The notes: generated by a model not told the origin, from the sequence alone. 64,000 bases of DNA from Methanobacteriota archaeon (GCA_016207515.1 JACQPN010000002.1:12350-76349), one strand, 5' to 3'. Positions 15,433 through 48,925 are shown, counted from the stretch's first letter. Program-made: numbers and translations.

Positions 15433-15686
15433 TTTGTCCTCGTCTCTCGAAGGTGGGCCCGTGGCTTAAAATGCGAGAGTCCGAGCACGCAAGATCGCGC
15501 GGTCTCGCCCGTTCTCCGTGGACGGTCTTCTTGCTTAGGCGCCGCACGCCGGTCCATGTGTCCGGACTTCCCGCGGCATGGAGGGTTCCTCGGCCCTTGC
15601 GAGTCCTTGCGGCCACCGGGCCTCCCCGCGTGGGCAGTAGCCTATATTACCCATTACCACATCTTCGCGCCGTCGGAGTGATGTGA

Positions 15687-15905
15687 CTGGCGAAACAGCC
15701 GGGGGAGAACTGCAAGAAGTGCGGGCATTGGGGCTCGTCGCCCGAGTTCGGTTTCGATGACCGGACAGGCTATTGCAACGCCCACGAGAAGCTCACCAGC
15801 GCCGATTACTGGTGCGACCTATTCATCTCAAAAGAGAAGTACCAGAAGCAGCAGGATGAGCTCTACGAGCAGATCGAGTCGGAAAGCGGGGAGTTCGAGG
15901 AATAG
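15687..15905 (+). CDS. putative small zinc-binding protein, no canonical start codon in frame
   Basis: Protein-like frame ...ENCKKCGHWGSSPEFGFDDRTGYCNAHEKLTSADYWCDLFISKEKYQKQQDELYEQIESESGEFEE*; the only nearby ATG (15681) is immediately followed in frame by TGA; not in the ORF track for that reason. Confidence 0.3.
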   Translation: MAKQPGENCKKCGHWGSSPEFGFDDRTGYCNAHEKLTSADYWCDLFISKEKYQKQQDELYEQIESESGEFEE

Positions 15906-15968
15906 TCGCGCTAGTACGTACTTATAGGTATATGCGCCCTTGATTCGATTCCGCTCCACTCGGTAGCA

Positions 15969-15977
15969 TTTTTATAC
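15969..15977 (+). promoter_or_regulatory. TATA-box-like element upstream of small membrane ORF
   Basis: tttttatac ~25 nt upstream of ATG 15999, consistent with a leaderless archaeal transcript. Confidence 0.4.
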
Positions 15978-15998
15978 ACCTCCGGCATCTTCCGGCCG

Positions 15999-16181
15999 AT
16001 GCGTTTCTCCATCTGGACGGCCGTGAGCCTCCTCCTGGTCGTCTTCGCCGTGGTCTTCTACGCGTACATGTACAGCATCACCGGCCGCTGGTTCGAGCAG
16101 GGTGTCTACGCGGTGACGGTGATCCCCCTGGGCTTTGGCCTCGCTGGCCTGTATCTCACGACGCGCGGGAACCCGCAGTAG
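15999..16181 (+). CDS. small membrane protein (2 TM)
   Basis: 60 aa, two hydrophobic helices; TATA-like box ~25 nt upstream. Confidence 0.5.
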   Translation: MRFSIWTAVSLLLVVFAVVFYAYMYSITGRWFEQGVYAVTVIPLGFGLAGLYLTTRGNPQ

Positions 16182-34209: not shown

Positions 34210-34635
34210 TCATGCCTGTTTCTTGCGACCCTTGGTCGGACTGAACGAGATGACCTTGATGCCGAGCTTTCTTGCGGCCTGCAACTGCCTGTCATCAGCG
34301 GAGACAAGGGTTCCTCCGGTGGAGACGGCTGCCTCTAGGTACTCCGCGTCGTAGTACGTCACGCCGGTGGCGGCATCCCAGACGCGATCGTCGTCGGTGT
34401 TCAACGGAATCAGGTCGATTCCGAGGAAGACGGCGCGGTGAAGCTCCTTGGCCTCGGCGACCTTCAGGTCGCGACACTCTTTCTGTATGACCCGTCCGAG
34501 CTCGCTGTATGCGATGTGTGGAGCTTGAAGCGCCATGCCTTTCGCCGAGGTTTCGCTAAGCCAGGCCCGAAACTCCTCCGATCCCGCCTCATCGAGGAAC
34601 GATTTTGCCAAAGCGCTGGCATCCAAGACGAACAT
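34210..34635 (-). CDS. vapC: PIN-domain toxin VapC
   Basis: ORF 34210..34707; start MFVLDASALAKSFLDE (PIN acidic residues D5, E/D ~40, D ~100). Confidence 0.8.
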   Translation of the reverse strand: MFVLDASALAKSFLDEAGSEEFRAWLSETSAKGMALQAPHIAYSELGRVIQKECRDLKVAEAKELHRAVFLGIDLIPLNTDDDRVWDAATGVTYYDAEYLEAAVSTGGTLVSADDRQLQAARKLGIKVISFSPTKGRKKQA

Positions 34636-34636
34636 C

Positions 34637-34846
34637 CTAGTGCTCCTCGCGAGCTTCCCGTACGACGTCAGCCACGGGACGACTTGCGGGCCGCCGGTAC
34701 TTCGCAAGGGTGGCGTTGCGACGATCGATTCGGAGTCTTTCTGCGAGCTTCGTGAGGTCCTCCTTCACGGTCTCGGCGATCTTGACTCCCGCCTCGTCGA
34801 GCTCGTGCTGTAGCGCATCTGGAATACGCACGCTGATTACACCCAT
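34637..34846 (-). CDS. vapB: ribbon-helix-helix antitoxin VapB (CopG-like)
   Basis: 69 aa, MGVISVRIPDALQHELDE...; stop 1 nt from vapC start. Confidence 0.75.
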   Translation of the reverse strand: MGVISVRIPDALQHELDEAGVKIAETVKEDLTKLAERLRIDRRNATLAKYRRPASRPVADVVREAREEH

Positions 34847-35005
34847 GTGTTTACATGGTTGTAAGACAAGATAAAGTTTACTGCTGGTTCTTACGGCCCA
34901 GGAGGGAAGTTGGTTGCACGGCGTGGGCGCCTTCGCGACCGACGTGCGAACCCGCCGACACCGCCGGTTAGTTATTTATACTTCGTCAGCGCACGTATAC
35001 ATTGT

Positions 35006-35209
35006 ATGCCAGAAGACACGATGCTTCGCGTCCCAGTGGCGGTTCGCGAGCGCCTGCGACGCTACGGCGTGAAGGGCCAGACGTACGCCAACATCCTGAC
35101 GAACCTGATGGACGAGTTTGACCATCGAGAGTTCGTGAAGGAACAAATCGCTTTGTTGGATGAGGCGATCGAGGAGAAGCCGCGCCTAGTTAACCTTCGA
35201 GACCTCTGA
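35006..35209 (+). CDS. antitoxin (RelB/ParD-like) of RelE module
   Basis: ORF 34910..35209, start placed at ATG 35006 (MPEDTMLRVPVAVRERLRRYG...); stop overlaps the toxin start (ATGA). Confidence 0.6.
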   Translation: MPEDTMLRVPVAVRERLRRYGVKGQTYANILTNLMDEFDHREFVKEQIALLDEAIEEKPRLVNLRDL

Positions 35210-35475
35210 TGCCTTACCGGGTGATCCTCGGGCGGCGCGCCGAAAAGAACCTTCGCGCGCTACGTGCCGATGAACGGGCGCGAGTCAAGGACGCTCTCCT
35301 CGTGCTGGAGGAAGACCCGATCCACCCCAGGCCCGGGGCGGACATCAAGCGGCTCAAGGGCACAAGACGCCTCTACCGCGTGCGCGTAGGCCCGTGGAGA
35401 GCCATCTATGGCATTCACGATGGCGACGTAATTATCACGGACTTCTTCAGGAAGAAGCGCGGATACGACATCTGA
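35209..35475 (+). CDS. relE: RelE/ParE-family toxin
   Basis: 88 aa; YRVRVGPWRAIYGIHDGDVIITDFFRKKRGY matches the RelE core. Confidence 0.8.
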   Translation: MPYRVILGRRAEKNLRALRADERARVKDALLVLEEDPIHPRPGADIKRLKGTRRLYRVRVGPWRAIYGIHDGDVIITDFFRKKRGYDI

Positions 35476-36847: not shown

Positions 36848-37038
36848 CCGTGCGACGAGCCGCCGCGGGTCTTGGGGCGCCGAGCGCCAACCCTCTTGGC
36901 GACGCATGCCCGAGGGCAAACGAATGGACGCGCTTCAACGCCTGTGCTATAAATACCTCTCCGTGCATCGAAACGAGTGACGTCCAACTCGCCGCCTGAC
37001 AACCGGTGCGGGGCGACGCATCGTGCCAAGCGGAGTAG

Positions 37039-38187
37039 TTGAATTTGGACCTCGCCTGGAACCCGCTCGGCGCCATCGGCATCGTGGTGGGCGTCCTCGC
37101 TTGCGCCATGGCGGCGCTCGTGTGGAAGGCGCGGGCCGACCGGGCCCAAAACCGCTGGCTCGCGGCCTACCTCTTCGGCAACGGCTTGTACTTCGTCGCC
37201 TACAACGGCCTCCGACTCTTCGCGACCGATCCCCGTGACGCCTACGCGCTCATGGCCTCAGGTTGGTCGGTGAATCTGCTGTCCGTCGGAGGATACTTTG
37301 CCTTCCTCTCTACGTTGGATTCCCCTCTCGTCTCTTGGATGCGAAGGTACCGGATCGTGTGGGCCGTGATGGGCGGCTCTGCCCTGGTCGCGGCATATGT
37401 CGTCGTCCAGCCGGGTGCTTGGTTCCCGGGCGTGCAGCCACTCGGTGGTTTTTCGGGATGGGGCGCAGTCTCCTCCCCGCTTAGAAACCTCGTCCTCCTG
37501 GTCCTCACGGGCCTCTTTATCTTTTCCGCAGCGCCGGCGATCGACGCTTGGCGCCGAGCGAAGACGCCGCTCCTACGTCGCCAAGGTTGGATCTTTGGCG
37601 CCACGTTCGCGACGACATCGCTCGGTTGGGCGGCCTTCATAATATGGTACCTGGCCTCGGGAACGGGCACATTCACGCCGTTTGTCGTGGTCGTCAATTT
37701 CCTGTGGCAGGCCCTGCTTTCGCTTGCCCTCTCCCTTGGCCTTGCGTACGGGATCCTGAAGACCCAACTTTTCGACGTCGACATCAAGCTCAAGTGGACG
37801 TTGCGAAGCGGCACGCTCGCGGGCGCCTTCTTGGGCGTTTTCTTCGTGGCAAGCGAGGCAGCGCAATCGGTACTCTCCGCACAACTCGGTCCCATTGTCG
37901 GGCTCGTCGCAACGGGTGCTCTCGTGTTCGCGTTGGCACCGCTCCAGCGCGCCGCGGACAGGATCGCGGACAAGGCCATGCCGCGCGTTTCGGACGACGC
38001 CGAGTACAGGACGGTGAGAAAGCGCGAGGTGTACGCCGCGGCCGTCGAGAGTGCTCTCGAAGAGGGCGACATACGCCCGAAGGAGCGCGGGATGCTCGCG
38101 ACACTTGCGGACCAGCTTGGGCTAGGTCCGAAGGAGATGCACGAGATCGAGGTTGAGGCGCGTTCGGAAAGAGCGCGGGTGGCGTAG
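37039..38187 (+). CDS. array member A: polytopic membrane protein (~9 TM) with conserved C-terminal module
   Basis: 382 aa, TTG start; seven N-terminal TM helices, then conserved TM hairpin (FFVASEAAQ...ALVFALAPL) and cytoplasmic helical tail. Confidence 0.75.
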   Translation: MNLDLAWNPLGAIGIVVGVLACAMAALVWKARADRAQNRWLAAYLFGNGLYFVAYNGLRLFATDPRDAYALMASGWSVNLLSVGGYFAFLSTLDSPLVSWMRRYRIVWAVMGGSALVAAYVVVQPGAWFPGVQPLGGFSGWGAVSSPLRNLVLLVLTGLFIFSAAPAIDAWRRAKTPLLRRQGWIFGATFATTSLGWAAFIIWYLASGTGTFTPFVVVVNFLWQALLSLALSLGLAYGILKTQLFDVDIKLKWTLRSGTLAGAFLGVFFVASEAAQSVLSAQLGPIVGLVATGALVFALAPLQRAADRIADKAMPRVSDDAEYRTVRKREVYAAAVESALEEGDIRPKERGMLATLADQLGLGPKEMHEIEVEARSERARVA

Positions 38188-38316
38188 ATGCCCCTCTCGC
38201 CGGGTTTCCTCGTCACGCAGGCGACTACCCTCCTTCTCGTCGTGCTGGGCGCGTTCGTCCTGACCGTGCGACCGCGCACGCGTGCGCCGGCTTTCCCGGT
38301 CACGGAGGCGGCCTGA
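38188..38316 (+). CDS. array fragment B1: 42-aa ORF carrying only the family N-terminal TM motif
   Basis: ATG immediately after A stop; LLLVVLGAFVLTVRPRTRAP matches the N-terminal LG...L[RK]PRT motif of C-G; likely gene remnant or split gene. Confidence 0.35.
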   Translation: MPLSPGFLVTQATTLLLVVLGAFVLTVRPRTRAPAFPVTEAA

Positions 38317-38832
38317 GTGCACTTGCTCGACGCCGTGGGGCTCACCGACTCCGTTTCGGTGCTAGTGTTCACTCTCCTGGGCCTTTGGGTCCTTTCGCTT
38401 CGCTGGCGTTCGGCCACGAACATCACGTTCGCCGTCTGCGCGATCGCTTTCTCGGCGGGCATAGTCCCGGTCAATCTTTTCACCGCCCGGACTCACTTGG
38501 ATCCCCCCATATCCGCCGCCGCGGACGTCGTCGCGAAGCGCGCCGTCTCGATCACGCGCGACGGCGATCCCGTCCCGTGCCCCATCCCGACGCTGCCTTG
38601 CGACGCAGCGCCGCGCGGCGCGCCGATCCTGCCCGACGACACCCGATACTCGCTCGTCATCGGCGACTACGTCGCGCTCGGCGGCGACGGATACGACAGG
38701 CTCCCCGACCTCGGTGCGAGCGGCGCGCTCGAAGCGGACGTGCTCATTGAGCACCTCGAGCGCCTCGGCACGGTCGAGCCGCGCGTCGACGGCCGCGTGT
38801 GGCACGTCGCGCGACTTCAGGGGGTGCCCTGA
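38317..38832 (+). pseudogene. array fragment B2: family-like N-terminal TM segment fused in frame to a 5'-nucleotidase C-terminal-domain-like tail
   Basis: GTG after B1 stop; N-terminal TM (LVFTLLGLWVLSLRWRS), C-terminal YSLVIGDYVALGGDGYDRL...VDGRVWHV resembles the 5'-nucleotidase C-terminal domain; no conserved family C-terminal module. Confidence 0.35.
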
Positions 38833-40073
38833 TGCACTTGCTGGGCGAGGCCTGGTTCTCGTGGGTCTCCTTCGTGGTCGCCGATGTGATCCTCGTTGCG
38901 CTCGGCATTCTCGTGCTCCGGCTCAAGCCGCGGACGCCGGCGAGCTGGGCTCTTGGCGTCTTCGCGACCGCCTGGGGAGCCAACTTCATCGTGGCGCTCG
39001 CGCCGTTCTTCTTCGACATCGACCTTTCGAGGCCAGGGTATCTGGAGGGTCAAACCCTTCTTCGCGTCGTCCTGAGAGCCATCTCCGCCGGCGGCCTCGT
39101 GGCGATGATGCTGACCTTCCCGCGGGCCCTGCCGCGAGCCGAGCGCCGCGCCCTCGTCGGGCCCGCGATCTTTGGCGCGGTCTGGGCGTTTGTGCTCATC
39201 GCCCCGCGATGGGCGATCCCACCGTGGGCGCTCCTCGACGTGGGAACCGCGATTGTCGGGTACGGGTTCGTCTGGGCGTACCTGCTGCTTCTCACGTCCC
39301 GGTGGCGGCGCGCGACCGACGCGGGCGAACGGCACCAGATCGTGCTCACGTTCGTGGCGCTCGCGCTGGGCGTCAGTTTCCAAGCGGGACAATACGCGGG
39401 AGGCGCGAGCCAGCTCGCTTCGTCAGGCGTCCTGACGTTCGTGACCCAGCTTGCCCCACCCGTCTGGCTTGCGGTCGTCTGGCTCCGGGGGGCCCACGGG
39501 GCGCAAGCGCGCGTCGAGCGGAATCTCGCCATCCTCCCGCTCGCGCTCGCGTTCGTGGGATTCCTCGTGGGGAGGAGGAGCCCCTACGATCCCTCGGGCC
39601 TCCTCGCCCTTGGCACCGTCGCGATCCTCACCTATGCGATCGTGCGTCACCAAGTCCTCGGCATCGACGTCAAGCTCCGCTTCGCCATCAGCAAGTCCAC
39701 GGTCGCGGCCGTGTTCATCGCGGTTTTCTTCGTCGCGAGCGAAGCGGCGCAGCAGTTCTTCGGCGAAGCGTTCCAATCCAATTACGTGGGCATCCTGGCG
39801 GCGGGTGCTCTCGTGTTCGCGATCGCGCCGTTGTCGCGCCTCGCGGACCGGATCGCGGAGAAGGCGGTGCCGGTTCCCACGGCACCTCCGGAGCCCACGG
39901 GGCTACCTTTTCGCGAAAAGCTCTACCGGGATGCAGCGCGCTACGCGCTCCGAGACGGCACGATGACACGCATCGAGGAGTTGCATCTTGCCCAGCTTGC
40001 CGCCGAGCTCGGGCTGCGCGCGGATCGGGCGGTCGAACTGCGCCATGAGATCGAGGAGGAGATGAGGGCGTGA
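38832..40073 (+). CDS. array member C: polytopic membrane protein with conserved C-terminal module
   Basis: ATG overlapping B2 stop (ATGA); module ISKSTVAAVFIAVFFVASEAAQQFFGEAFQSNYVGILAAGALVFAIAPLSRLADRIAEKAVP plus tail YRDAARYALRDGTMTRIEELHLAQLAAELGL. Confidence 0.8.
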   Translation: MHLLGEAWFSWVSFVVADVILVALGILVLRLKPRTPASWALGVFATAWGANFIVALAPFFFDIDLSRPGYLEGQTLLRVVLRAISAGGLVAMMLTFPRALPRAERRALVGPAIFGAVWAFVLIAPRWAIPPWALLDVGTAIVGYGFVWAYLLLLTSRWRRATDAGERHQIVLTFVALALGVSFQAGQYAGGASQLASSGVLTFVTQLAPPVWLAVVWLRGAHGAQARVERNLAILPLALAFVGFLVGRRSPYDPSGLLALGTVAILTYAIVRHQVLGIDVKLRFAISKSTVAAVFIAVFFVASEAAQQFFGEAFQSNYVGILAAGALVFAIAPLSRLADRIAEKAVPVPTAPPEPTGLPFREKLYRDAARYALRDGTMTRIEELHLAQLAAELGLRADRAVELRHEIEEEMRA

Positions 40074-41356
40074 TCGTTTTCCACACGGAGTGGGACGCGA
40101 TCGTGAACGCGATTACGGCCGCGATCCTCGCGGGGTTCGGAGCCTGGATCTGGGCGCTTCGGCCGCGGACCCGACTCACCCGTATGCTCGCGCTCTTTGC
40201 CGTCGCGCACGGCGTTCTCTACACGTACATCAACTTGGTCGAGGTCCTCCCTGTGGGAGGCCCCGCTTGGATCGCGGATACGCTCCTCCGGGGCGCGCTC
40301 TTCGGGGCCGCCGCGTGGGGTCTGCTCGCGATGGGACGCGAAGTCCTGCGGCCTCTCGGCCCCGGGAGCGATCGTCTCTGGAAGGTCGCCGTCGCGACCG
40401 TCGGGATTCTCGCGGTCGTAATCACGGGCCCGGTGCTTTTTGGCCTCCCCGATTCCTCCCCTCTCGCCTGGGTCGCGATCGCCGCCGAGCTTTTCGGCCT
40501 CGCAACGTTCATTCTCGGATTCACCGCCCTTCCGGTCGTGTTTGTGTGGCTCTACCGGCAGCCCCTCGGGGAGGACGTTGAGCGGACGAGGCGCAACGCC
40601 ATCGTGATGAGCAACGCGCTCGTCCTCTGGCCGGCGCTCTATGGGATTGAGGCCGCGATCGGGGGCGGTATCGGCGGATACCTAGTTCTCATCGGTGTGG
40701 TCGCGCTCGGGCTCCTCTGGCTGGCCAACATCGGAGTCGATCCCCGGACAGCCCGCGAGGCTCGCGACGCGGCGCTTCTCGCCTTCGCCCTGCTCCTCAT
40801 CGGAACCGTCGACAGACTGATCCTCTCCGACGCGCTCGGCTACTCTCGCGCAGAGGGCCCGTTCTATGGAATCGCGCGCCTCCTGACGGTCGTCGCGCTC
40901 TCCTACGCCGTCCTGAAGCACTCCGTGCTCGGCTTCGACGTGAACCTACGCTTTGCAATCAGCAAGTCCACCATCGCCGCCGTCTTCGTCGCCGTCTTCT
41001 TCGTCGCGAGCGAAGCGGCGCAGCAGTTCTTCGGTGAAGCGTTCCAGTCGAGCTACGTGGGCATCCTGACGGCGGGTGCGCTCGTGTTCGCGATCGCGCC
41101 GTTGTCGCGGCTTGCGGACAGGATCGCTGAGAAGGCGGTGCCGATCGCGGAGGGCCGTCCCGCCGCCACGACGGCGAAGGAGGAAGCGTACAAACGCGCG
41201 TTGCGCATCGCGCTGCGGGACCGCAAGCTCACGCGCGAGGAGGACATCCACGTGCACGAGCTCGCGGAGCACCTCGGCATCGGCGCAGGCCGAGCGATGG
41301 CATTGCGTGTAGAGATTGAACGCGAATTGGCCGCATCGACCGGAGGCGGGACTTGA
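40070..41356 (+). CDS. array member D: polytopic membrane protein with conserved C-terminal module
   Basis: GTG overlapping C stop (GTGA); C-terminal module nearly identical to C and E2 at protein and DNA level. Confidence 0.8.
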   Translation: MIVFHTEWDAIVNAITAAILAGFGAWIWALRPRTRLTRMLALFAVAHGVLYTYINLVEVLPVGGPAWIADTLLRGALFGAAAWGLLAMGREVLRPLGPGSDRLWKVAVATVGILAVVITGPVLFGLPDSSPLAWVAIAAELFGLATFILGFTALPVVFVWLYRQPLGEDVERTRRNAIVMSNALVLWPALYGIEAAIGGGIGGYLVLIGVVALGLLWLANIGVDPRTAREARDAALLAFALLLIGTVDRLILSDALGYSRAEGPFYGIARLLTVVALSYAVLKHSVLGFDVNLRFAISKSTIAAVFVAVFFVASEAAQQFFGEAFQSSYVGILTAGALVFAIAPLSRLADRIAEKAVPIAEGRPAATTAKEEAYKRALRIALRDRKLTREEDIHVHELAEHLGIGAGRAMALRVEIERELAASTGGGT

Positions 41357-41595
41357 CGATTCCGCTCGGCCGGATCCTCAACCTCGCCGGGAGCTCGGTG
41401 ATTGTGCTGCTCGGGCTCGCCGTCGCATTCCTTGGCCGAGGACGAGGTCCAGACCTTGGAGTGACTCGGTTCTCCATCGGCATCGGCGGGCTCGCTCTCG
41501 CGAAGCGCCACATGCGCGACCTTGTGGCCACCTGGGCGGGAGAGGACGCAACTGGTCGCGAAGCGGCGCCCGACTTGGAGGCGCGGTCCCCGTGA
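41353..41595 (+). CDS. array fragment E1: 80-aa ORF with family N-terminal TM motif
   Basis: TTG overlapping D stop; LAGSSVIVLLGLAVAFLGRGRG matches the family N-terminus; ends at TGA overlapping the GTG of E2. Confidence 0.4.
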   Translation: MTIPLGRILNLAGSSVIVLLGLAVAFLGRGRGPDLGVTRFSIGIGGLALAKRHMRDLVATWAGEDATGREAAPDLEARSP

Positions 41596-42932
41596 ATCTG
41601 CTCTCCGGGGCCCTCGTGCCCGCCTACGCCGGGACCCTCACAAACCTGCTCCTCGCTGCGGCTCTCCTCAGGTGGGGCCCAAGGCGGGGGGCATCGGTCT
41701 GGTTCGTCGCTTTCCTGGTCGCGGACGGCGTTGGCCTGGCGCTCAACGCAATCGAGAACCACGTCTTCCAGACCTTCGACGCCACCACGTCGAGCGCGTC
41801 AGAGATCGAAGCGACACGGGCGCTACTCACGGGGCTCGATGTCGCCGTGGGCGTTCTGCTCGTCTCTGCCCTGTTCCTGATCGTTTTCGCAACGATCGAA
41901 TTCTTGGGGCGCGCCCCGCGATGGCTGGCACCGGCGGTCCTCGCGACCGCGAGCACGGCGGCGCTCTGGGGGATTCTCGACCCTCCCGCAGGATACTTCC
42001 TCCGCGAGGGCCGCCTCATACACGTCGTCGACTCCTCCTATTTCTTCCTCACAACGCTTCCTGCCTTCGCAAGCCAAGGCGTCGCGCTTCTCGTGCTCGC
42101 GCGGCGACCAGCCGGCGATCCCAGCTCACCCACGCGCCGCTCTCACCTCCTCCTTGGCATCGGTCTCCTCGTGTATCCTCTTCATCGTGGCGCCTATCTT
42201 GTGGTGGACTACTTCCTCGACCCGCTGTCTGTAGCGCGAGTAACTGCCTCCAATCGGTTCGTCCTGCTCGGCGAGCTGGCGACCGCCGTGTTCCTCCTCT
42301 TCGCCGCCTACCTTGCCATCATGCGGCTTGCACGCACACATCCCGAGCACGCGGGCCTCGTTCTCGCGGCCGGCGTGGGCCTCGGCTCCGGGATACTGCG
42401 TGCCCTGACGGATGCGCTCCCGTCCTACTTCTATTTCGGCGTCGCGAACCTCGTGCTGCCGCTCGTCGCTACGTACGCGCTGCTCCGGCACAACCTGTTC
42501 GGTCTCGATTTCAGGGTTCGGTGGGCGATCTCGAAGTCCACGATCGCGGCGGTCTTCATCGCCGTCTTCTTTGTGGCGAGCGAGGCGGCGCAGCAGTTCT
42601 TCGGCGAAGCGTTCCAATCCAATTACGTTGGCATCCTGGCGGCGGGTGCTCTTGTGTTCGCGATCGCACCGTTGTCGCGGCTTGCGGACCGGCTCGCTGA
42701 GAAGGCGGTGCCGGTGGCCGCCGGAACCGGGCCCGTCGAGGCGAGCGCGTCCGACACGCGCGGAGCCGACGCGTACCGACACGCGGTGCGCTTGGCGCTT
42801 CGCGACCGGCGCCTCACGCCCGGTGAAGAGGTCGCTTTGGCGCACGTCGCGCAGGGTCTCGGACTCACGCCTGTTGAGGCCATTCGGCTCCGCCACGAGG
42901 TCGAGGCGGAGACCGGGAAGGAGGTGCGCTAA
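41592..42932 (+). CDS. array member E2: polytopic membrane protein with conserved C-terminal module
   Basis: In-frame part of ORF 41316..42932 starting at GTG 41592; C-terminal module identical over long stretches to C and D. Confidence 0.75.
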   Translation: MNLLSGALVPAYAGTLTNLLLAAALLRWGPRRGASVWFVAFLVADGVGLALNAIENHVFQTFDATTSSASEIEATRALLTGLDVAVGVLLVSALFLIVFATIEFLGRAPRWLAPAVLATASTAALWGILDPPAGYFLREGRLIHVVDSSYFFLTTLPAFASQGVALLVLARRPAGDPSSPTRRSHLLLGIGLLVYPLHRGAYLVVDYFLDPLSVARVTASNRFVLLGELATAVFLLFAAYLAIMRLARTHPEHAGLVLAAGVGLGSGILRALTDALPSYFYFGVANLVLPLVATYALLRHNLFGLDFRVRWAISKSTIAAVFIAVFFVASEAAQQFFGEAFQSNYVGILAAGALVFAIAPLSRLADRLAEKAVPVAAGTGPVEASASDTRGADAYRHAVRLALRDRRLTPGEEVALAHVAQGLGLTPVEAIRLRHEVEAETGKEVR

Positions 42933-42990
42933 ACTGGCTCTCGACGCGCGGTTCGTAATCACCGCAGGAAGCGGCGCGCTATGGGGCCTC

Positions 42991-44166
42991 ATGGGTGTCG
43001 TGATCCTCGCACTCGGCAGGAGCCGACGGGAGAACGTGGCGCTGGGGGCCCTCGCCCTATCGTTTGGTGCGATGTTCGTGTCGAACAACCTCGCCTTCGA
43101 GCCCGGAGCTGACGCGCTCCCAGTCATGTGGGGCTCGGCCCTCTTGGCCGTTGTCGCCGGTCTCGCCGCCCTCGCCGTGGCATGGACGACAGAGGGCCTC
43201 CCACGCGCGCCGGTCGTCGTCGCGGGAGCCGTCGGGGCCGCTTGGCAGCTCCTCGTGCCGATGGGACCCGTGTACGCGGCGGTGAACGCGGCGCGCTTCC
43301 CGCAGCCCGTGGCGGCGGCGTTCTTCACGAACGTCGCGTCTCCGCTTTTCGTCATCGCGTTGGCGCTCCTCATCGGGCTCCTTGCCGCCTTCGCCCTCGC
43401 CCCGAGGAGACTCGCGATGGGTGATCCGCGCCGTCCGCCGCGAAGGCTTCTGATGTACGCGTTCGGCCTCTACCTCGCGTACTCGATGGGCGCCAACGTG
43501 GTCGCGTACGACTTGAGCGGCTATGTCGTACTCTTCCCACTCGTCGTCGCACTTGCGGTGGCGCTGCTCGTCGCTGGCGCCGCGCCGGGCGGGCTGCCCG
43601 AACGTGACGGGGCGCTCGTCATCCTCGCGGCGGGCCTCGCCGGCGCGATCTCCGAGACCTGGGGAGGGGCGACCACGTCGGGCCTTGGCGTCGGCATCCT
43701 CCGCATCGTCGGCGTTGCGGTCCTTGCGTACTCCGTGTTCCGCTACGACCTCCTCGGCGTGCCGCTCCCGCGTATCGCCGAACACCGCGGCAGCCTTGCG
43801 ATGGCCTCGCTGGCCTCGCTCTTCATCGTCGCGCAGATCGCGGAGAACTACCTCAGCGCGGAGTACGGCCTCTTGATGGGTGGCGTGGTGGCGGGCGCGC
43901 TCCTCTTCGCCGCGAACCCCATACAACGGGCGATGGAGAGGACGACCGCTCCGGTCGGGCCCCATCGTGCTCCGGCGACGGTCGAGCGCCGCGAGGAGAG
44001 CGAGCGTGCCTACAGGGTGGCGTTACGCCGCTTCCTCGTTGACGGGGATATCAGCGCGGAGGAGGAGATCGCCTTGGCCCACCTTGCGGATGAGGCGGGC
44101 GTGACGGTGCGGCGAACAATCGAACTCCGCCACGAGGTCGAGCGCGAGTTGGGGAGGCGGGGCTGA
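42991..44166 (+). CDS. array member F: polytopic membrane protein with conserved C-terminal module (start uncertain)
   Basis: First in-frame ATG after E2 stop is 42991; homology to G begins at CTG 42934 (LALDARFVITAGSGALWGL vs VLDLSAASLVRAGSGVLFL), so the start may be non-canonical or lost. Confidence 0.7.
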   Translation: MGVVILALGRSRRENVALGALALSFGAMFVSNNLAFEPGADALPVMWGSALLAVVAGLAALAVAWTTEGLPRAPVVVAGAVGAAWQLLVPMGPVYAAVNAARFPQPVAAAFFTNVASPLFVIALALLIGLLAAFALAPRRLAMGDPRRPPRRLLMYAFGLYLAYSMGANVVAYDLSGYVVLFPLVVALAVALLVAGAAPGGLPERDGALVILAAGLAGAISETWGGATTSGLGVGILRIVGVAVLAYSVFRYDLLGVPLPRIAEHRGSLAMASLASLFIVAQIAENYLSAEYGLLMGGVVAGALLFAANPIQRAMERTTAPVGPHRAPATVERREESERAYRVALRRFLVDGDISAEEEIALAHLADEAGVTVRRTIELRHEVERELGRRG

Positions 44167-45417
44167 TTGGTTCTCGACCTCAGCGCGGCTTCGCTCGTTC
44201 GCGCGGGAAGCGGTGTACTGTTTCTCCTTGTCGGGCTCGCGATGATCGGCCTCGGTCGTCGGAAGCGCGAGAACCTGGCCGTCGGTGTGGCGGCAGTCGC
44301 GTTCGGCCTTGCTTTCGTCGTCAACAACATCGATCCGTCAGGCTCGGTCGTCGCGCAGATCGTGCTTGCCCTGGTTTGCGCCGCCGCGCTCGCCGTGCCG
44401 GTGGCTTCCTCGAAAAGGGCCGCCGCGTTCACGGCATTTGTCGCGCTGTCGCTTGTCGGACTCCTCGCGCTATCGACGCCAGCCCAAGTCGTCGGCTTCG
44501 CGGGAGTTCCCATCCCACCTGAGGCTTGGACGGGTTATTACCAGTCCCTCTTCGGCTACCTCCCAATGGTGGCGGCGGTCCTTGGGTACGCTCTGATGCA
44601 GGCGCTGCGATGCAGTAGCGAGTCGGACGAGTGCAGCGCCCGGGCATCAGCGCTTCTTGTCGCCGGGTGGGGGATCTATCCTGCCTTCCTCACGGGCGGA
44701 CAGGTTGCCATCGTTGCGACGCTTCGGTTCGGGCTGACGCCTCCCGGGCTCGCGACCACGGGCGTCCTTGCCCTCGCCGTCGCGGTCATCGTGGCGATGC
44801 TCCTCTACTCGACGCGCCGCACGAAGAGAGCCCGTAATGTCGCGTGGCTTCTCCTGGCATGCGAACTGGCCGGGATGGTGGATCAGGGCTTGGGCGGGAC
44901 CTATGTCACTCCATGGGTCGGTGTCGCGCGCTCGATTGGTGCGGTGATGATTGCGGTGGCGGTCTTTCGCGAGGCGGCACTAGGTTTTGAACTCGGTCTT
45001 CCGACGATCCGCCGCGGAACGACGGCGACGGTGGTTCTCGCGGGCTTCTTCATCGTCGCCCAGATCGCGCAGAACTTCTTGAGTGATGAGTACGGGCTGG
45101 TGATGGGGGGCGTGGTCGCGGGAGCGCTGCTTTTCGCGGCGAACCCCATCCAGCGCGCGATCGAGAGGGACTGGGCCGACCGTGCGCAAGCCACCACATC
45201 AGCGGCGTTTCCCATGGCAAGGGGGGCGCCGGCCGCCGCGACGGCGAGCAAGGAGGAGGCGTACCGCAACGCGCTGCGTATCGCGCTACGTGACCGCGTC
45301 CTCACGGAAGACGAGGAAGTCCAACTCGCGCATCTTTCCGACGAATTGGGCCTCACGCATAGGCGGGCAAGAGAGATCCGAAACGAGGTGCAGCGCGAGG
45401 CCGGGGCGCGGGAGTAA
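44167..45417 (+). CDS. array member G: polytopic membrane protein with conserved C-terminal module
   Basis: TTG right after F stop; C-terminal module FFIVAQIAQNFLSDEYGLVMGGVVAGALLFAANPIQRAIER plus tail EEAYRNALRIALRDRVLTEDEEVQLAHLSDELGL. Confidence 0.8.
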   Translation: MVLDLSAASLVRAGSGVLFLLVGLAMIGLGRRKRENLAVGVAAVAFGLAFVVNNIDPSGSVVAQIVLALVCAAALAVPVASSKRAAAFTAFVALSLVGLLALSTPAQVVGFAGVPIPPEAWTGYYQSLFGYLPMVAAVLGYALMQALRCSSESDECSARASALLVAGWGIYPAFLTGGQVAIVATLRFGLTPPGLATTGVLALAVAVIVAMLLYSTRRTKRARNVAWLLLACELAGMVDQGLGGTYVTPWVGVARSIGAVMIAVAVFREAALGFELGLPTIRRGTTATVVLAGFFIVAQIAQNFLSDEYGLVMGGVVAGALLFAANPIQRAIERDWADRAQATTSAAFPMARGAPAAATASKEEAYRNALRIALRDRVLTEDEEVQLAHLSDELGLTHRRAREIRNEVQREAGARE

Positions 45418-45680: not shown

Positions 45681-46232
45681 ATGCCCACCAATCTTCCGGA
45701 CGACTGGCGAAAGAGGCGCAAGGAAGGCGACAAGGACCCCTTCTTCGAGATGTTCGGCGACATGGACGCTGAATTCGAGCGCATGCGCGTCTACATGAAC
45801 AAGATGATGGAGGACGCGATGAAATCGCCCGGAATGAAGCTGGGCGAGCCGTACGTCTACGGTTTCAGCCTCAAAGTAGGCCCCGACGGAAAGCCGCGCA
45901 TCCAGGAGTTCGGGAACACGAAGCCCTTGGCGACGGCACCGGAGGAGGCGGGCCGCGAACCGCTCACCGACGTCATCGAGGACGAAAAGACCGTCTCGGC
46001 CACGTTCGAGATCCCCGGCGTCGAAAAAGACGAGATCCAACTCCACGTCACGGAGGACAAGTTGACGATACGCGTGAACACGCCCAAGCGGAAGTACCAC
46101 AAGGAAGCGGACCTACCGGCGCGAGTGAAGCCCGAGACGACGGAGGCGACGTACAACAACGGAGTCCTCGACGTAGTGATCCAAAAGGCGGCGGAGAAGG
46201 CGCCGGCGGGAAAACGCGTGCAGATTAAGTGA
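45681..46232 (+). CDS. small heat shock protein (Hsp20/alpha-crystallin family)
   Basis: 183 aa; alpha-crystallin domain (TVSATFEIPGVEKDEIQLHVTEDKLTIRVN ... ATYNNGVLDVVIQK); TATA-like elements 20-40 nt upstream. Confidence 0.9.
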   Translation: MPTNLPDDWRKRRKEGDKDPFFEMFGDMDAEFERMRVYMNKMMEDAMKSPGMKLGEPYVYGFSLKVGPDGKPRIQEFGNTKPLATAPEEAGREPLTDVIEDEKTVSATFEIPGVEKDEIQLHVTEDKLTIRVNTPKRKYHKEADLPARVKPETTEATYNNGVLDVVIQKAAEKAPAGKRVQIK

Positions 46233-47244: not shown

Positions 47245-48621
47245 TCAGGCCGTCGTCAACCGCGCGCCCGTGATGACGTGGCCATTCCCGTGTCTGGCGT
47301 TCCACACGGCAAAAGCGCCTTGACCTTCGGCAAGTGCCACGAGCCCCATGTAGTCGCCCGTCGTTCGAGTCGTGCCTTCGTGCGCGTCGAGCGTGATGCG
47401 CTCCGACATGTTGCCATTCGCCGCGATGGCTACGGCCCGAAGGGTGGCGCTTAGTGTGGTCCCTTCGCCCATCGGGAACCAGTAGGTGACGATTGCGCTC
47501 CCGTCGCGCGTGGCCGCGAGAGCGGGCGATGTCCGGGCGGCGGCCTGCGTCGACTCGATTTCGATGGCTACGCTCCATGTTCGCCCGCCGTCGTCCGACC
47601 AGCGCAGCGTCACGATCTGCGGCACGTCGGGCTGTCCGTTCGTTTCGCCCGTCATCGGGTAGGCCATGTAGATTCGCTCGCCGGTCGGCCCCGGCCCGAT
47701 GGTCTTTGCGAGGACCGGGAATTTCGTCGTGCTGTCGATCGACGTGTTCGTCGTCCATGATGCGCCCCTGTCCGTGGAGACGGCTAAATGGATCTTAGCA
47801 TCGTCCGTCTCTCGGTACGAAACGACGCATGATCCGTCGTCGAGCACGAGCGGGAACGCCCCGGAGGAGACGCCCCGGTAGATTTCGCTCGGCGGCGACC
47901 ATGTCCGGCCGCCGTCTGTGGAACTCGCCGCATAGGTCTGCGTACAACCCTCGAAGCAAGCGGACGTCCGTTGCTCGTTGCGGTTCCACGCCATGAGGAC
48001 GGTACCGTCCGCGCCCGAGGCTAGCCATTGTTTGTCGAATTCGATGCGGCCTGCACCGTAGGCGGGCGAAACCGCGTCCGAGCCTTGCTGCAGGATGCTC
48101 GCCTCGGGGAAGCTTTGACCACCGTCCGAAGAGCGCCAAAGCGCGATCGAGGCTGCGGTCGAGGCGATGCCCCGCCCGTCCACGGATTCAAAATTGAAAA
48201 CGAGGGCGGTGTACAGGACGGTCCCATCGGCTAGGATGAGGACGGCCGGATCGTCCGCGTGGTCGTATGCGACGAGAGGATGGGTCGGCGGTGCGTCGCG
48301 TCCCATGGGAAGCCGCATCGTCGCCCAAGTGGCGCCACCGTCCTTGCTCACGTGCGCGAGCGGCCACGAGTACGGCTTGCCTTGCGCGTCGAACCCCTGG
48401 TCCATGCTGGCAGCGACGATCGTTTTCCCGTCCCGGGGGTCGGCCGCGACCGCGGGTTCCCAACGCGTGCCCTTGTCGATGACGACGGCGCACGGCGAGG
48501 GGCAGGAGAGGACAGGGCGGTGGTCTGGTTCCGGCTGCTGTTTCCGTGTTTGCTCGGCGCATCCGCTCACGACGACCAGTATGAGGACCACGAGTGTGAT
48601 CGGGGCACGCGGGCTCTGCAT
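47245..48621 (-). CDS. secreted lipoprotein with BNR/Asp-box repeats (sialidase-like beta-propeller), paralog of 28893..30878
   Basis: ORF 47245..48804; start ATG 48621 before signal/lipobox (VVVSGC); Asp-boxes SKDGGATW, SSDGGQSF, STDGGRTW, STDRGASW, SDDGGRTW. Confidence 0.8.
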   Translation of the reverse strand: MQSPRAPITLVVLILVVVSGCAEQTRKQQPEPDHRPVLSCPSPCAVVIDKGTRWEPAVAADPRDGKTIVAASMDQGFDAQGKPYSWPLAHVSKDGGATWATMRLPMGRDAPPTHPLVAYDHADDPAVLILADGTVLYTALVFNFESVDGRGIASTAASIALWRSSDGGQSFPEASILQQGSDAVSPAYGAGRIEFDKQWLASGADGTVLMAWNRNEQRTSACFEGCTQTYAASSTDGGRTWSPPSEIYRGVSSGAFPLVLDDGSCVVSYRETDDAKIHLAVSTDRGASWTTNTSIDSTTKFPVLAKTIGPGPTGERIYMAYPMTGETNGQPDVPQIVTLRWSDDGGRTWSVAIEIESTQAAARTSPALAATRDGSAIVTYWFPMGEGTTLSATLRAVAIAANGNMSERITLDAHEGTTRTTGDYMGLVALAEGQGAFAVWNARHGNGHVITGARLTTA

Positions 48622-48925
48622 CAATCCGGGGAGGCGTAGACAGCCCCCCTCCTTATCGGTTCCGCCAACGACGGTCACAACAGGCCCGCCGGGATAGGGG
48701 CCACCGACGATTGCCACCCTCTTCCACGAGCCGGTCGCGCGGGGCGAGCGCGAGACGCGACGAAGGTCACCCGCCCCGAGACCTCTCGACCTCGTTCCCA
48801 GCACCGCAGTGGTCGACAGCTCACAAGCGCTTCCTCTCGATTGCCCGGCTTCGCCTCGCAGCGTGTGAACTCCGGCGGTAGCGCTTTAACGGATTGTTCT
48901 ACTACTGAGCTCAAGGATCCGGGGG

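Follow-up and report, generated by a model that had tools for sequence, protein, structure and literature searches.

A tandem gene array in a Methanobacteriota archaeon that may encode a repertoire of kinase-less, sensor-like seven-helix membrane proteins

INTRODUCTION

What might an archaeon gain from six related membrane proteins that are encoded back to back in a single block of genes? The question is raised by a stretch of 64,000 nucleotides from a Methanobacteriota archaeon (GCA_016207515.1, JACQPN010000002.1:12350-76349), which is called the window in the following. Its plus strand carries, at positions 37039-45417, an array of nine open reading frames (ORFs), namely six full-length paralogs (A, C, D, E2, F and G) and three short ORFs (B1, B2 and E1). 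A first-pass annotation of this DNA had described the encoded proteins as a variable transmembrane (TM) end joined to a constant signalling end, and had considered receptor, immunity or surface-variation families as well as the core of an undescribed system. Here we propose, with a probability that we put at about 0.5, that the array is a repertoire of kinase-less polytopic sensor-like proteins with seven-helix (7TM) bundles which share one transducer module.

RESULTS

The array proteins form one family without a library model

All nine ORFs were confirmed to lie on the same strand and to abut or overlap by at most 4 nucleotides, and the junctions read as follows: TAG followed directly by ATG (A/B1), TGA followed directly by GTG (B1/B2), TGATG (B2/C), GTGA (C/D and E1/E2), TTGA (D/E1) and TGA followed directly by TTG (F/G). 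With a family profile built from 63 homologs the six full-length proteins gave matches at E 1e-81 to 1e-129, and no further copies were detected by this profile in the rest of the window. The paralogs are 18-28% identical in their N-terminal parts and 30-64% identical over the C-terminal 160 residues. Judged from these comparisons the homology among the array proteins is far beyond chance; the picture of a variable membrane end joined to a constant end was likewise borne out. On the contig of gene D two further proteins of matching length are annotated, HY556_00770 (413 residues, the length of C) and HY556_00785 (446 residues, the length of E2; P0025), and an additional family copy, HY556_01135, is found elsewhere on this contig.

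Searches of the window proteins against Pfam and NCBIfam returned nothing above threshold, no model of either library covers the proteins, and all homologs found are entered as 'hypothetical protein'; in the first-pass annotation the proteins had likewise not been assigned to a known family. The homologs include 64 close ones from metagenome-assembled genomes (MAGs) of Thermoplasmatota or 'Methanobacteriota', none of which has a Pfam domain. With the same two libraries no enzymatic output domain (HisKA/HATPase_c, GGDEF or other) was detected in the window proteins or in 177 family members that were scanned individually.

A seven-helix bundle is followed by a constant hairpin and a cytoplasmic tail

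An AlphaFold2 model of D, based on the 63-sequence alignment (predicted local distance difference test score 91.2, predicted TM-score 0.79), has eleven helices of membrane length, seven of them at residues 8-222, followed by three short ones. Proteins C to G contain about eleven membrane helices, arranged as seven, then two, then a conserved hairpin. Gene A and a bacterial branch of the family have two linker helices fewer (about nine TM helices). The simpler layout of seven helices plus hairpin, which had been suggested for all full-length members, is therefore correct for the short A type only, while the shared N-terminal motif (LG..V...RPR.R in the family) and the C-terminal module were found as described. 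In the hydropathy profile of gene C eleven hydrophobic segments were seen and K/R-rich loops alternate with K/R-poor ones, which, by the positive-inside rule, corresponds to an external N-terminus and a cytoplasmic tail; the same orientation is predicted for the modelled D protein with its eleven helices and three short tail helices. The predicted outer loops comprise 3-8 residues and there is no ectodomain.

The constant end begins with an almost invariant cytoplasmic juxtamembrane motif, LRHxxLGxDVKxRxxISKST. It continues with the TM hairpin, which is rich in small residues (...FFVASEAAQQFF... / GIxAAGALVFAIAPLQR), with small-residue packing motifs in the TM11 consensus. Beyond the last TM helix there remain about 70 residues in the cytoplasm, of which the tail itself takes up about 60, in three helices. 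Column entropy over 114 diverse members was higher in the outer than in the inner halves of all seven bundle helices (mean 2.94 versus 2.39 bits). The lowest values were obtained for the L9 loop after TM9 (1.21 bits), TM10 (1.28) and TM11 (1.06), compared to 2.2-2.6 bits for the tail helices. Hence the C-terminal module is indeed conserved, but its most conserved part is the juxtamembrane loop with the TM hairpin and not the tail.

The bundle is distantly related to a sensor domain

HisKA_7TM (PF16927; gathering threshold 28.6 bits) is known as a sensor domain of histidine kinases in archaea (PMC5847659). When the 177 family members were scanned individually, one of them, P0278, passed this threshold with 35.1 bits (E 1.6e-8; residues 18-214 on profile positions 10-208 of 224), and a second member reached E 0.01. 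Residues 8-226 of P0278 also match the N-terminal hidden Markov model (HMM) of the family (E 1.7e-10), and its C-terminus has both hairpin and tail. By this transitive link via P0278 the bundle appears to be distantly related to HisKA_7TM, as a very divergent relative of this sensor domain. The remaining weak matches of the TM part are only to sensor families, to 7TMR-DISM_7TM at 5e-4 and 1.8e-3 in 2 of the 177 members and to 6TM_PilS at 3e-3. A sensory character of the variable end, as assumed in the first-pass annotation, gains from this relationship and from the variability of the outward helix halves.

The family shares with HisKA_7TM an N-out seven-helix bundle, very short loops and a basic R-x-R motif after TM1, but it differs by the lack of a kinase or GGDEF output, by the two to four additional TM helices and the one TerB-type repeat that follow the bundle, and by its organisation in tandem arrays. 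Prokaryotic 7TM receptors of the 7TMR-DISM and 7TMR-HD types, reportedly described by Anantharaman and Aravind in 2003, resemble the family in that a 7TM receptor module is fused to an intracellular module; in contrast to these, our proteins have no extracellular DISMED domain, their output is not an enzyme and the sequence similarity stays below threshold. Compared to sensory rhodopsin II with its transducer HtrII, the family has receptor and hairpin in one polypeptide and no HAMP or methyl-accepting signalling domain, and the match of the hairpin is generic.

The tail resembles one half of a TerB domain

The tail was compared with the TerB superfamily at several levels of sensitivity. The best TerB match (PF05099, gathering score 24.4 bits) of a window protein was that of the E2 tail with 19.4 bits (E 1.3e-3), which is below threshold. 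TerB matches at E<=0.05 were obtained in 33 of 114 members, with a best E of 2.8e-5, and those inspected individually were all sub-threshold (22.9 bits for P0122). DUF533 matched 13 and Tic110 4 of the 114. The TerB alignments cover only profile positions ~39-118. Profile searches of the PDB with full-length and C-terminal queries gave marginal matches to Tic110 (E 0.029, the top match), RpoH (E 0.05) and TerB (E 0.14). In hhalign comparisons the tail profile scored P 1.5e-6 against DjlA 136-171 and P 3e-5 against TerB 113-148, the second repeat. Lower significance was seen with RpoH region 4 (P 0.004) and YebE (P 0.022), and the controls gave P >=0.26 for ten unrelated E. coli proteins and P >=0.07 for reversed or shuffled targets.

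All alignments to TerB families are in one register and display the signature A...DG-x-L-x3-E-x3-L-x3-A-x2-LG-L. The residues D384, E391 and L395 of D are nearly invariant, and A, C and F have the DG dipeptide. The common register and the hhalign scores together identify the tail, as far as sequence can tell, as a single TerB-type repeat, about half a normal TerB domain: one repeat of three helices over about 60 residues, compared to about 120-150 residues for the complete two-repeat domain. The family is similar to the TerB superfamily (TerB, DUF533/YebE, the middle domain of DjlA and the Tic110 repeats) in its signature and in its location on the cytoplasmic side next to the membrane. It is different in having only one repeat, in the fusion of this repeat to a polytopic sensor, and in Pfam scores below the gathering threshold in the window proteins. 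When the C-terminal module alone was used as a query, only fragments of the same family were recovered and the module was not found in other architectures. What had been called a constant signalling end contains no enzymatic signalling domain, and one TerB-type repeat makes up its tail.

The constant block is homogenised among neighbouring paralogs

The region from L9 to TM11 corresponds to a 273-nucleotide direct repeat in C, D and E2 (Table 1). Over this region C and D are 91% and D and E2 84% identical, compared to 72% between D and its ortholog L003_4 at another locus (loci outside the window carry L numbers). The same was seen elsewhere: the neighbours L003_3 and L003_4 are 24% identical in the bundle and 84% in L9-TM11, whereas the orthologs L003_4 and L001_2 are 79% identical in the bundle and only 66% in L9-TM11. 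The hairpin variant is specific to a genome and common to the paralogs of that genome. F and G represent a second hairpin class, since the L9-TM11 block of F is 64% identical to that of G and 26% to that of C. Where the residue is identical, C, D and E2 have the same codon in 70-74% of cases within the block versus 35-55% in bundle and tail; for the pair C/D the values are 74% in the block and 35-36% in tail and 7TM part. Because the block is homogenised in this genome including its synonymous sites, the data point to gene conversion of the constant block among adjacent paralogs.

The paralogs themselves belong to old subtypes that have orthologs in other genomes: L003_4 and L001_2 fall with D; L003_9, L003_10 and L007_1, the protein from Gemmatimonadetes, with A; and L003_5 to L003_8 and L003_11 with F/G. 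D is 47% identical to L003_4 and 40% to its neighbour C, and the gene order is partly conserved between loci. A fast-diversifying immunity or surface-variation family, as had been considered, was not borne out by these old subtypes, nor by the very short extracellular loops. Moreover, all copies are located in one translationally coupled block and are hence not expressed one at a time, which argues against surface variation.

Short ORFs, gene boundaries and overlapping frames

B1, B2 and E1 match the family profile over its first 37-73 positions only and are therefore N-terminal stumps of family genes. B2 is composite, as its first ~64 residues are the family N-terminus (TM1-TM2) and its last ~65 residues the extreme C-terminus of a 5'-nucleotidase. 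Among the PDB sequence matches of this second part 24 of 25 are 5'-nucleotidases, aligned at their last ~65 residues (best E 1.4e-3), and weak 5_nucleotid_C and UshA matches were obtained in Pfam and NCBIfam. B2 is, to all appearance, the scar of a past rearrangement that brought the 3' end of a 5'-nucleotidase gene into the array. Stumps with TM1 and the RPR motif recur directly upstream of full-length genes, not only as B1, B2 and E1 but also at L038 (3339-3521) and possibly at L003 (6713-6814). Each of the recurrent stumps retains a start codon and the stop/start overlap. They could be leftovers of deletions, or else small proteins with one or two TM helices that are expressed. A 153-residue ORF behind the two-copy array of L001 (11329-11790, plus strand) contains two tail pieces in different frames. 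It was considered as a stand-alone TerB protein and rejected in favour of the C-terminal remains of a third copy, disrupted by a frameshift; this remnant indicates that arrays decay from the 3' side too.

The start of gene F is anomalous. At the homologous start position (region 42925-42995) there is no ATG, GTG or TTG. Candidates are CTG at 42934, TTG at 42874 (which adds 20 unrelated basic residues and a 59-nucleotide overlap with E2) and ATG at 42991 (with most of TM1 gone). Possible causes of the anomaly are initiation at a non-canonical codon, a start codon lost by recent mutation, and an error in the assembly.

Ahead of the array the candidate TATA box TATAAATA is the sole obvious promoter-like element, and scans for tRNA genes and Rfam families around the array found no element. 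Several long ORFs overlap the array antisense or out of frame (37242-38483 and 42126-43373 on the minus strand, 38714-40048 on the plus strand, and others, up to 444 residues). They were treated as non-coding, on account of their Arg/Pro/Ala-rich low-complexity translations, which are typical of wrong frames in GC-rich genes.

Distribution of the family and genomic neighbourhood

When 1.84 billion cluster representatives were searched exhaustively with a profile, 4,403 of them matched at E<=1e-3, including 1,495 at E<=1e-30; the 150 matches listed have lengths of 385-481 residues. Most members are from Thermoplasmatota MAGs. A single-copy branch of ~70 homologs (369-398 residues, similar to gene A) is present in bacteria, among them Gemmatimonadetes and Woeseiaceae, and the family is hence not confined to archaea. 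A genome scan of GTDB with degenerate patterns found at least one locus, the Gemmatimonadetes one (L007, 9302-10456, plus strand), where a full-length A-type member of 384 residues is located as a single copy beside PadR-like and MacB-like genes. Searches of IMG/VR viral contigs and of phage and plasmid records turned up no member of the family, and literature searches gave no description of the family.

The survey of array sizes that the first-pass annotation had called for revealed a range from one to at least 13 copies: one each in L005, L006 and L007, two each in L001 and L031 (in the latter a divergent pair), three in L040, four in L039, at least four plus a 60-residue N-terminal stump in L038, five in L004, six in the window and at least 13 in L003. 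A metagenome DNA-pattern scan added 12 further loci, mostly on short contigs, with no new neighbour pattern. Across the loci compared no conserved neighbour or partner gene was found, and the idea of the array as the core of a multi-gene system was not supported. Toxin-antitoxin (TA) or Fic genes occur within a few kb of 5 of the 6 multi-copy arrays with context, which is a raw count. They comprise a PIN gene, a ribbon-helix-helix-like gene and ParE upstream of the window array (Table 1), ParE and two PIN genes inside the L003 array, MazEF and VapBC at L004, a VapB-like pair at L039 and a Fic gene near the L001 array.

Directly downstream of the array in the window is an Hsp20 gene (45681-46232, plus strand). 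It is followed, 1.8 kb downstream of the array, by a gene for a secreted BNR/sialidase-like protein (47245-48804, minus strand). A similar BNR_2 protein is encoded downstream of the L001 array, which suggests local synteny between the two genomes. Four kb from its two-copy array L001 encodes a 195-residue protein (15562-16149, minus strand) that has a winged helix (HTH_34) at its N-terminus and, beyond a linker, a TM hairpin at its C-terminus. This hairpin is homologous to TM10-11 (E 3e-10 with the hairpin HMM; E 1e-7 in reciprocal phmmer), and the window encodes no counterpart of the protein. Its hairpin is 33-37% identical to the copies of its own genome and up to 49% to others. A within-genome co-variation with the receptor hairpins was considered and not seen, since the hairpin is closer to copies of other genomes. 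It is conceivable that the winged-helix protein acts as a partner of the receptors that is tethered to the membrane.

Table 1. Positions of the array genes, of the parts of gene D and of associated features in the window
Feature	Position	Strand	Description	Basis
PIN gene	34210-34707	-	TA gene upstream of array
Ribbon-helix-helix-like gene	34910-35209	+	TA gene upstream of array
ParE gene	35209-35475	+	TA gene upstream of array
Candidate archaeal TATA box TATAAATA	36949-36956	+	~85 nucleotides upstream of gene A	Read directly from sequence
Gene A	37039-38187	+	382 residues, short A type, ~9 TM helices, same subtype as bacterial branch	Family profile E 1.4e-81; hydropathy
B1	38188-38316	+	42-residue N-terminal remnant, TM1 and RPRTR motif	Profile positions 6-37, E 5e-6
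B2	38317-38832	+	171-residue chimeric remnant	Profile positions 11-73, E 1e-9
Gene C	38832-40073	+	413 residues from ATG 38832; 424 residues from GTG 38799	Profile E 7e-127
Constant block of C	39627-39899	+	Reference copy of 273-nucleotide direct repeat
Gene D	40070-41356	+	428 residues	100% match to NCBI HY556_00775 (P0001)
D, 7TM bundle	40070-40741	+	Residues 1-224
D, TM8-9	40742-40918	+	Residues 225-283
Constant block of D	40898-41170	+	Direct repeat	82% nucleotide identity to C copy
D, juxtamembrane loop and TM10-11	40919-41143	+	Residues 284-358
D, TerB-type tail	41162-41344	+	Residues 365-425
E1	41353-41595	+	80-residue N-terminal remnant	Profile positions 5-60, E 6.6e-5
Gene E2	41592-42932	+	446 residues from GTG 41592	Profile E 2e-105
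Constant block of E2	42468-42740	+	Direct repeat	78% nucleotide identity to C copy
Gene F	~42934-44166	+	~410 residues, start codon uncertain, second hairpin class (common to G)	Profile E 2.6e-83
Gene G	44167-45417	+	416 residues, last in array	Profile E 4.2e-88

DISCUSSION

In this study we describe a family of polytopic membrane proteins in which a variable bundle, distantly related to a sensor domain, is joined to a constant hairpin and a half-size TerB-type tail. If the array is indeed a repertoire of sensor-like proteins, the bundle of each paralog would respond to a different cue, which would have to be small or membrane-borne because the outer loops are too short for a ligand-binding ectodomain. 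The conformational change might then be relayed through the common hairpin to the tail, and the tail would act as a homo- or heteromeric dimer or dock to a common cytoplasmic or membrane partner. Dimerisation or docking is probable as the tail is half of a two-repeat TerB domain. Together with the small-residue packing in TM11 and the identity of the hairpin among neighbours this makes an oligomerisation via hairpin and tail reasonable. As the genes are translationally coupled, and in this reading also co-transcribed, their products probably arise together and the whole repertoire would be displayed at once.

Several observations weigh against this proposal. It is from the architecture that we infer sensing, dimerisation and downstream signalling, and both an output enzyme and a partner gene are absent. 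The link to HisKA_7TM consists of one intermediate sequence and one match at E 0.01 among 177 members, and the six window paralogs have no match to HisKA_7TM even at E<=1. Foldseek found no match in the PDB at E<=1e-3, and the TM-scores of 0.2-0.3 to solved 7TM proteins express a generic likeness. Faster evolution of the outward-facing parts is frequent among membrane proteins of any function, and the conserved polar residues of TM10 (S-E-x-x-Q) would be compatible with ion binding or transport as well.

Other functions have therefore to be weighed, all of which have less support than the sensor reading. The proteins might form a membrane-surveillance, antiviral or immunity module in a variable defence island, in which the TerB-like tail and the variable domain detect invasion or membrane damage. 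TerB domains do occur in validated defence systems such as Bunzi, Shango and Dionysus, where they are thought to survey the membrane (bioRxiv 10.1101/2022.05.11.491447; 10.1101/2025.09.30.679545). All six tails match the PADLOC candidate PDC-S48 locally (E 1e-6 to 3e-4), and the TA or Fic genes near most multi-copy arrays would also fit. With these systems the family has in common a membrane-associated TerB-like element, the tail HMM matches to PDC-S48 and the nearby TA genes. However, the PDC-S48 matches span 50-75 tail residues at positions ~200-290 of profiles that are 411-512 long, which is the TerB-like repeat alone, and the TA adjacency is a raw count. Effector domains (nuclease, pore former, NTPase) are found neither in the proteins nor conserved beside them. 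The paralogs form archaeal chromosomal arrays, are old and have orthologs across genomes without rapid turnover, and the viral, phage and plasmid records contain no copy. A role in defence seems unlikely to us.

An involvement in transport, with the bundle setting specificity and the buried Ser-Glu-x-x-Gln of TM10-11 serving as translocation or coupling site of a transporter or ion-conducting protein, we regard as more doubtful still. The 9-11 TM helices and the nearly invariant polar residues S314, E315 and Q318 of TM10 (alignment A2) are in agreement with it, and tandem paralog arrays are common for transporters. Yet no transporter family of Pfam or NCBIfam was found for the 177 members, conservation of E315 does not extend to the F/G hairpin class (AQIAEN and AQIAQN instead), and no inverted-repeat architecture was seen. 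It is even less probable that the proteins are membrane scaffolds or co-chaperone-like adaptors whose TerB/Tic110/DjlA-like tail recruits chaperones or other proteins and whose membrane part is an anchor. Here the best tail profile match, to the TerB-like region of the co-chaperone DjlA, the position of Tic110 as top PDB sequence match and the Hsp20 gene next to the array have to be set against the absence of a J domain, the absence of Hsp20 neighbours at any other locus compared, and the fact that a simple anchor needs no bundle of 7-9 helices with conserved subtypes. Very improbable, finally, is a membrane-tethered transcription regulator in which the three-helix tail is a helix-turn-helix (HTH) DNA-binding domain under 7TM control. 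The tail motif LAxxLGLxxxRAxxL does resemble an HTH, and besides the RpoH matches one member gave Sigma70_r4 at E 0.027. But TerB and DjlA match 100- to 3,000-fold better than RpoH, the putative recognition helix is Glu-rich (RAxELRxEVExE), and the conserved Asp/Glu pair (D384 and E391 in D) is a TerB signature.

Returning to the sensor-like repertoire, we class the family under the prokaryotic 7TM receptors with an intracellular module. It was placed neither with the HisKA_7TM kinases nor with the TerB proteins because it lacks defining features of each. Both building blocks belong to known superfamilies; in the libraries and the literature searched we found no description of the architecture, of the lack of an enzymatic output, of the tandem arrays or of the concerted evolution of the constant block. 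A more far-reaching version, which we consider quite unlikely, is that Thermoplasmatota use the family as kinase-independent receptors that are co-expressed, form homo- and hetero-oligomers via the homogenised hairpin, pair their half-TerB tails to give a whole TerB-like module and pass the signal on to hairpin-bearing partners such as the winged-helix protein of L001. If true, this would be a previously unknown archaeal route from a 7TM receptor to transcription.

In conclusion, an entry in Pfam or arCOG is warranted for the family. If the proteins are sensors, they would represent a large unannotated family of prokaryotic 7TM receptors whose output is non-enzymatic and which comprises thousands of 50%-identity clusters. 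The arrays are a natural example of a divergent receptor domain beside a transducer block that evolves in concert. The TerB repeat, widespread and poorly understood, would be given a defined structural context, in which a receptor keeps one such repeat at the membrane. Thermoplasmata have almost no two-component systems, with 3 kinases in 11 genomes (PMC5847659), and an expansion of such receptors in an archaeal phylum nearly devoid of two-component signalling would show how these organisms sense their surroundings.

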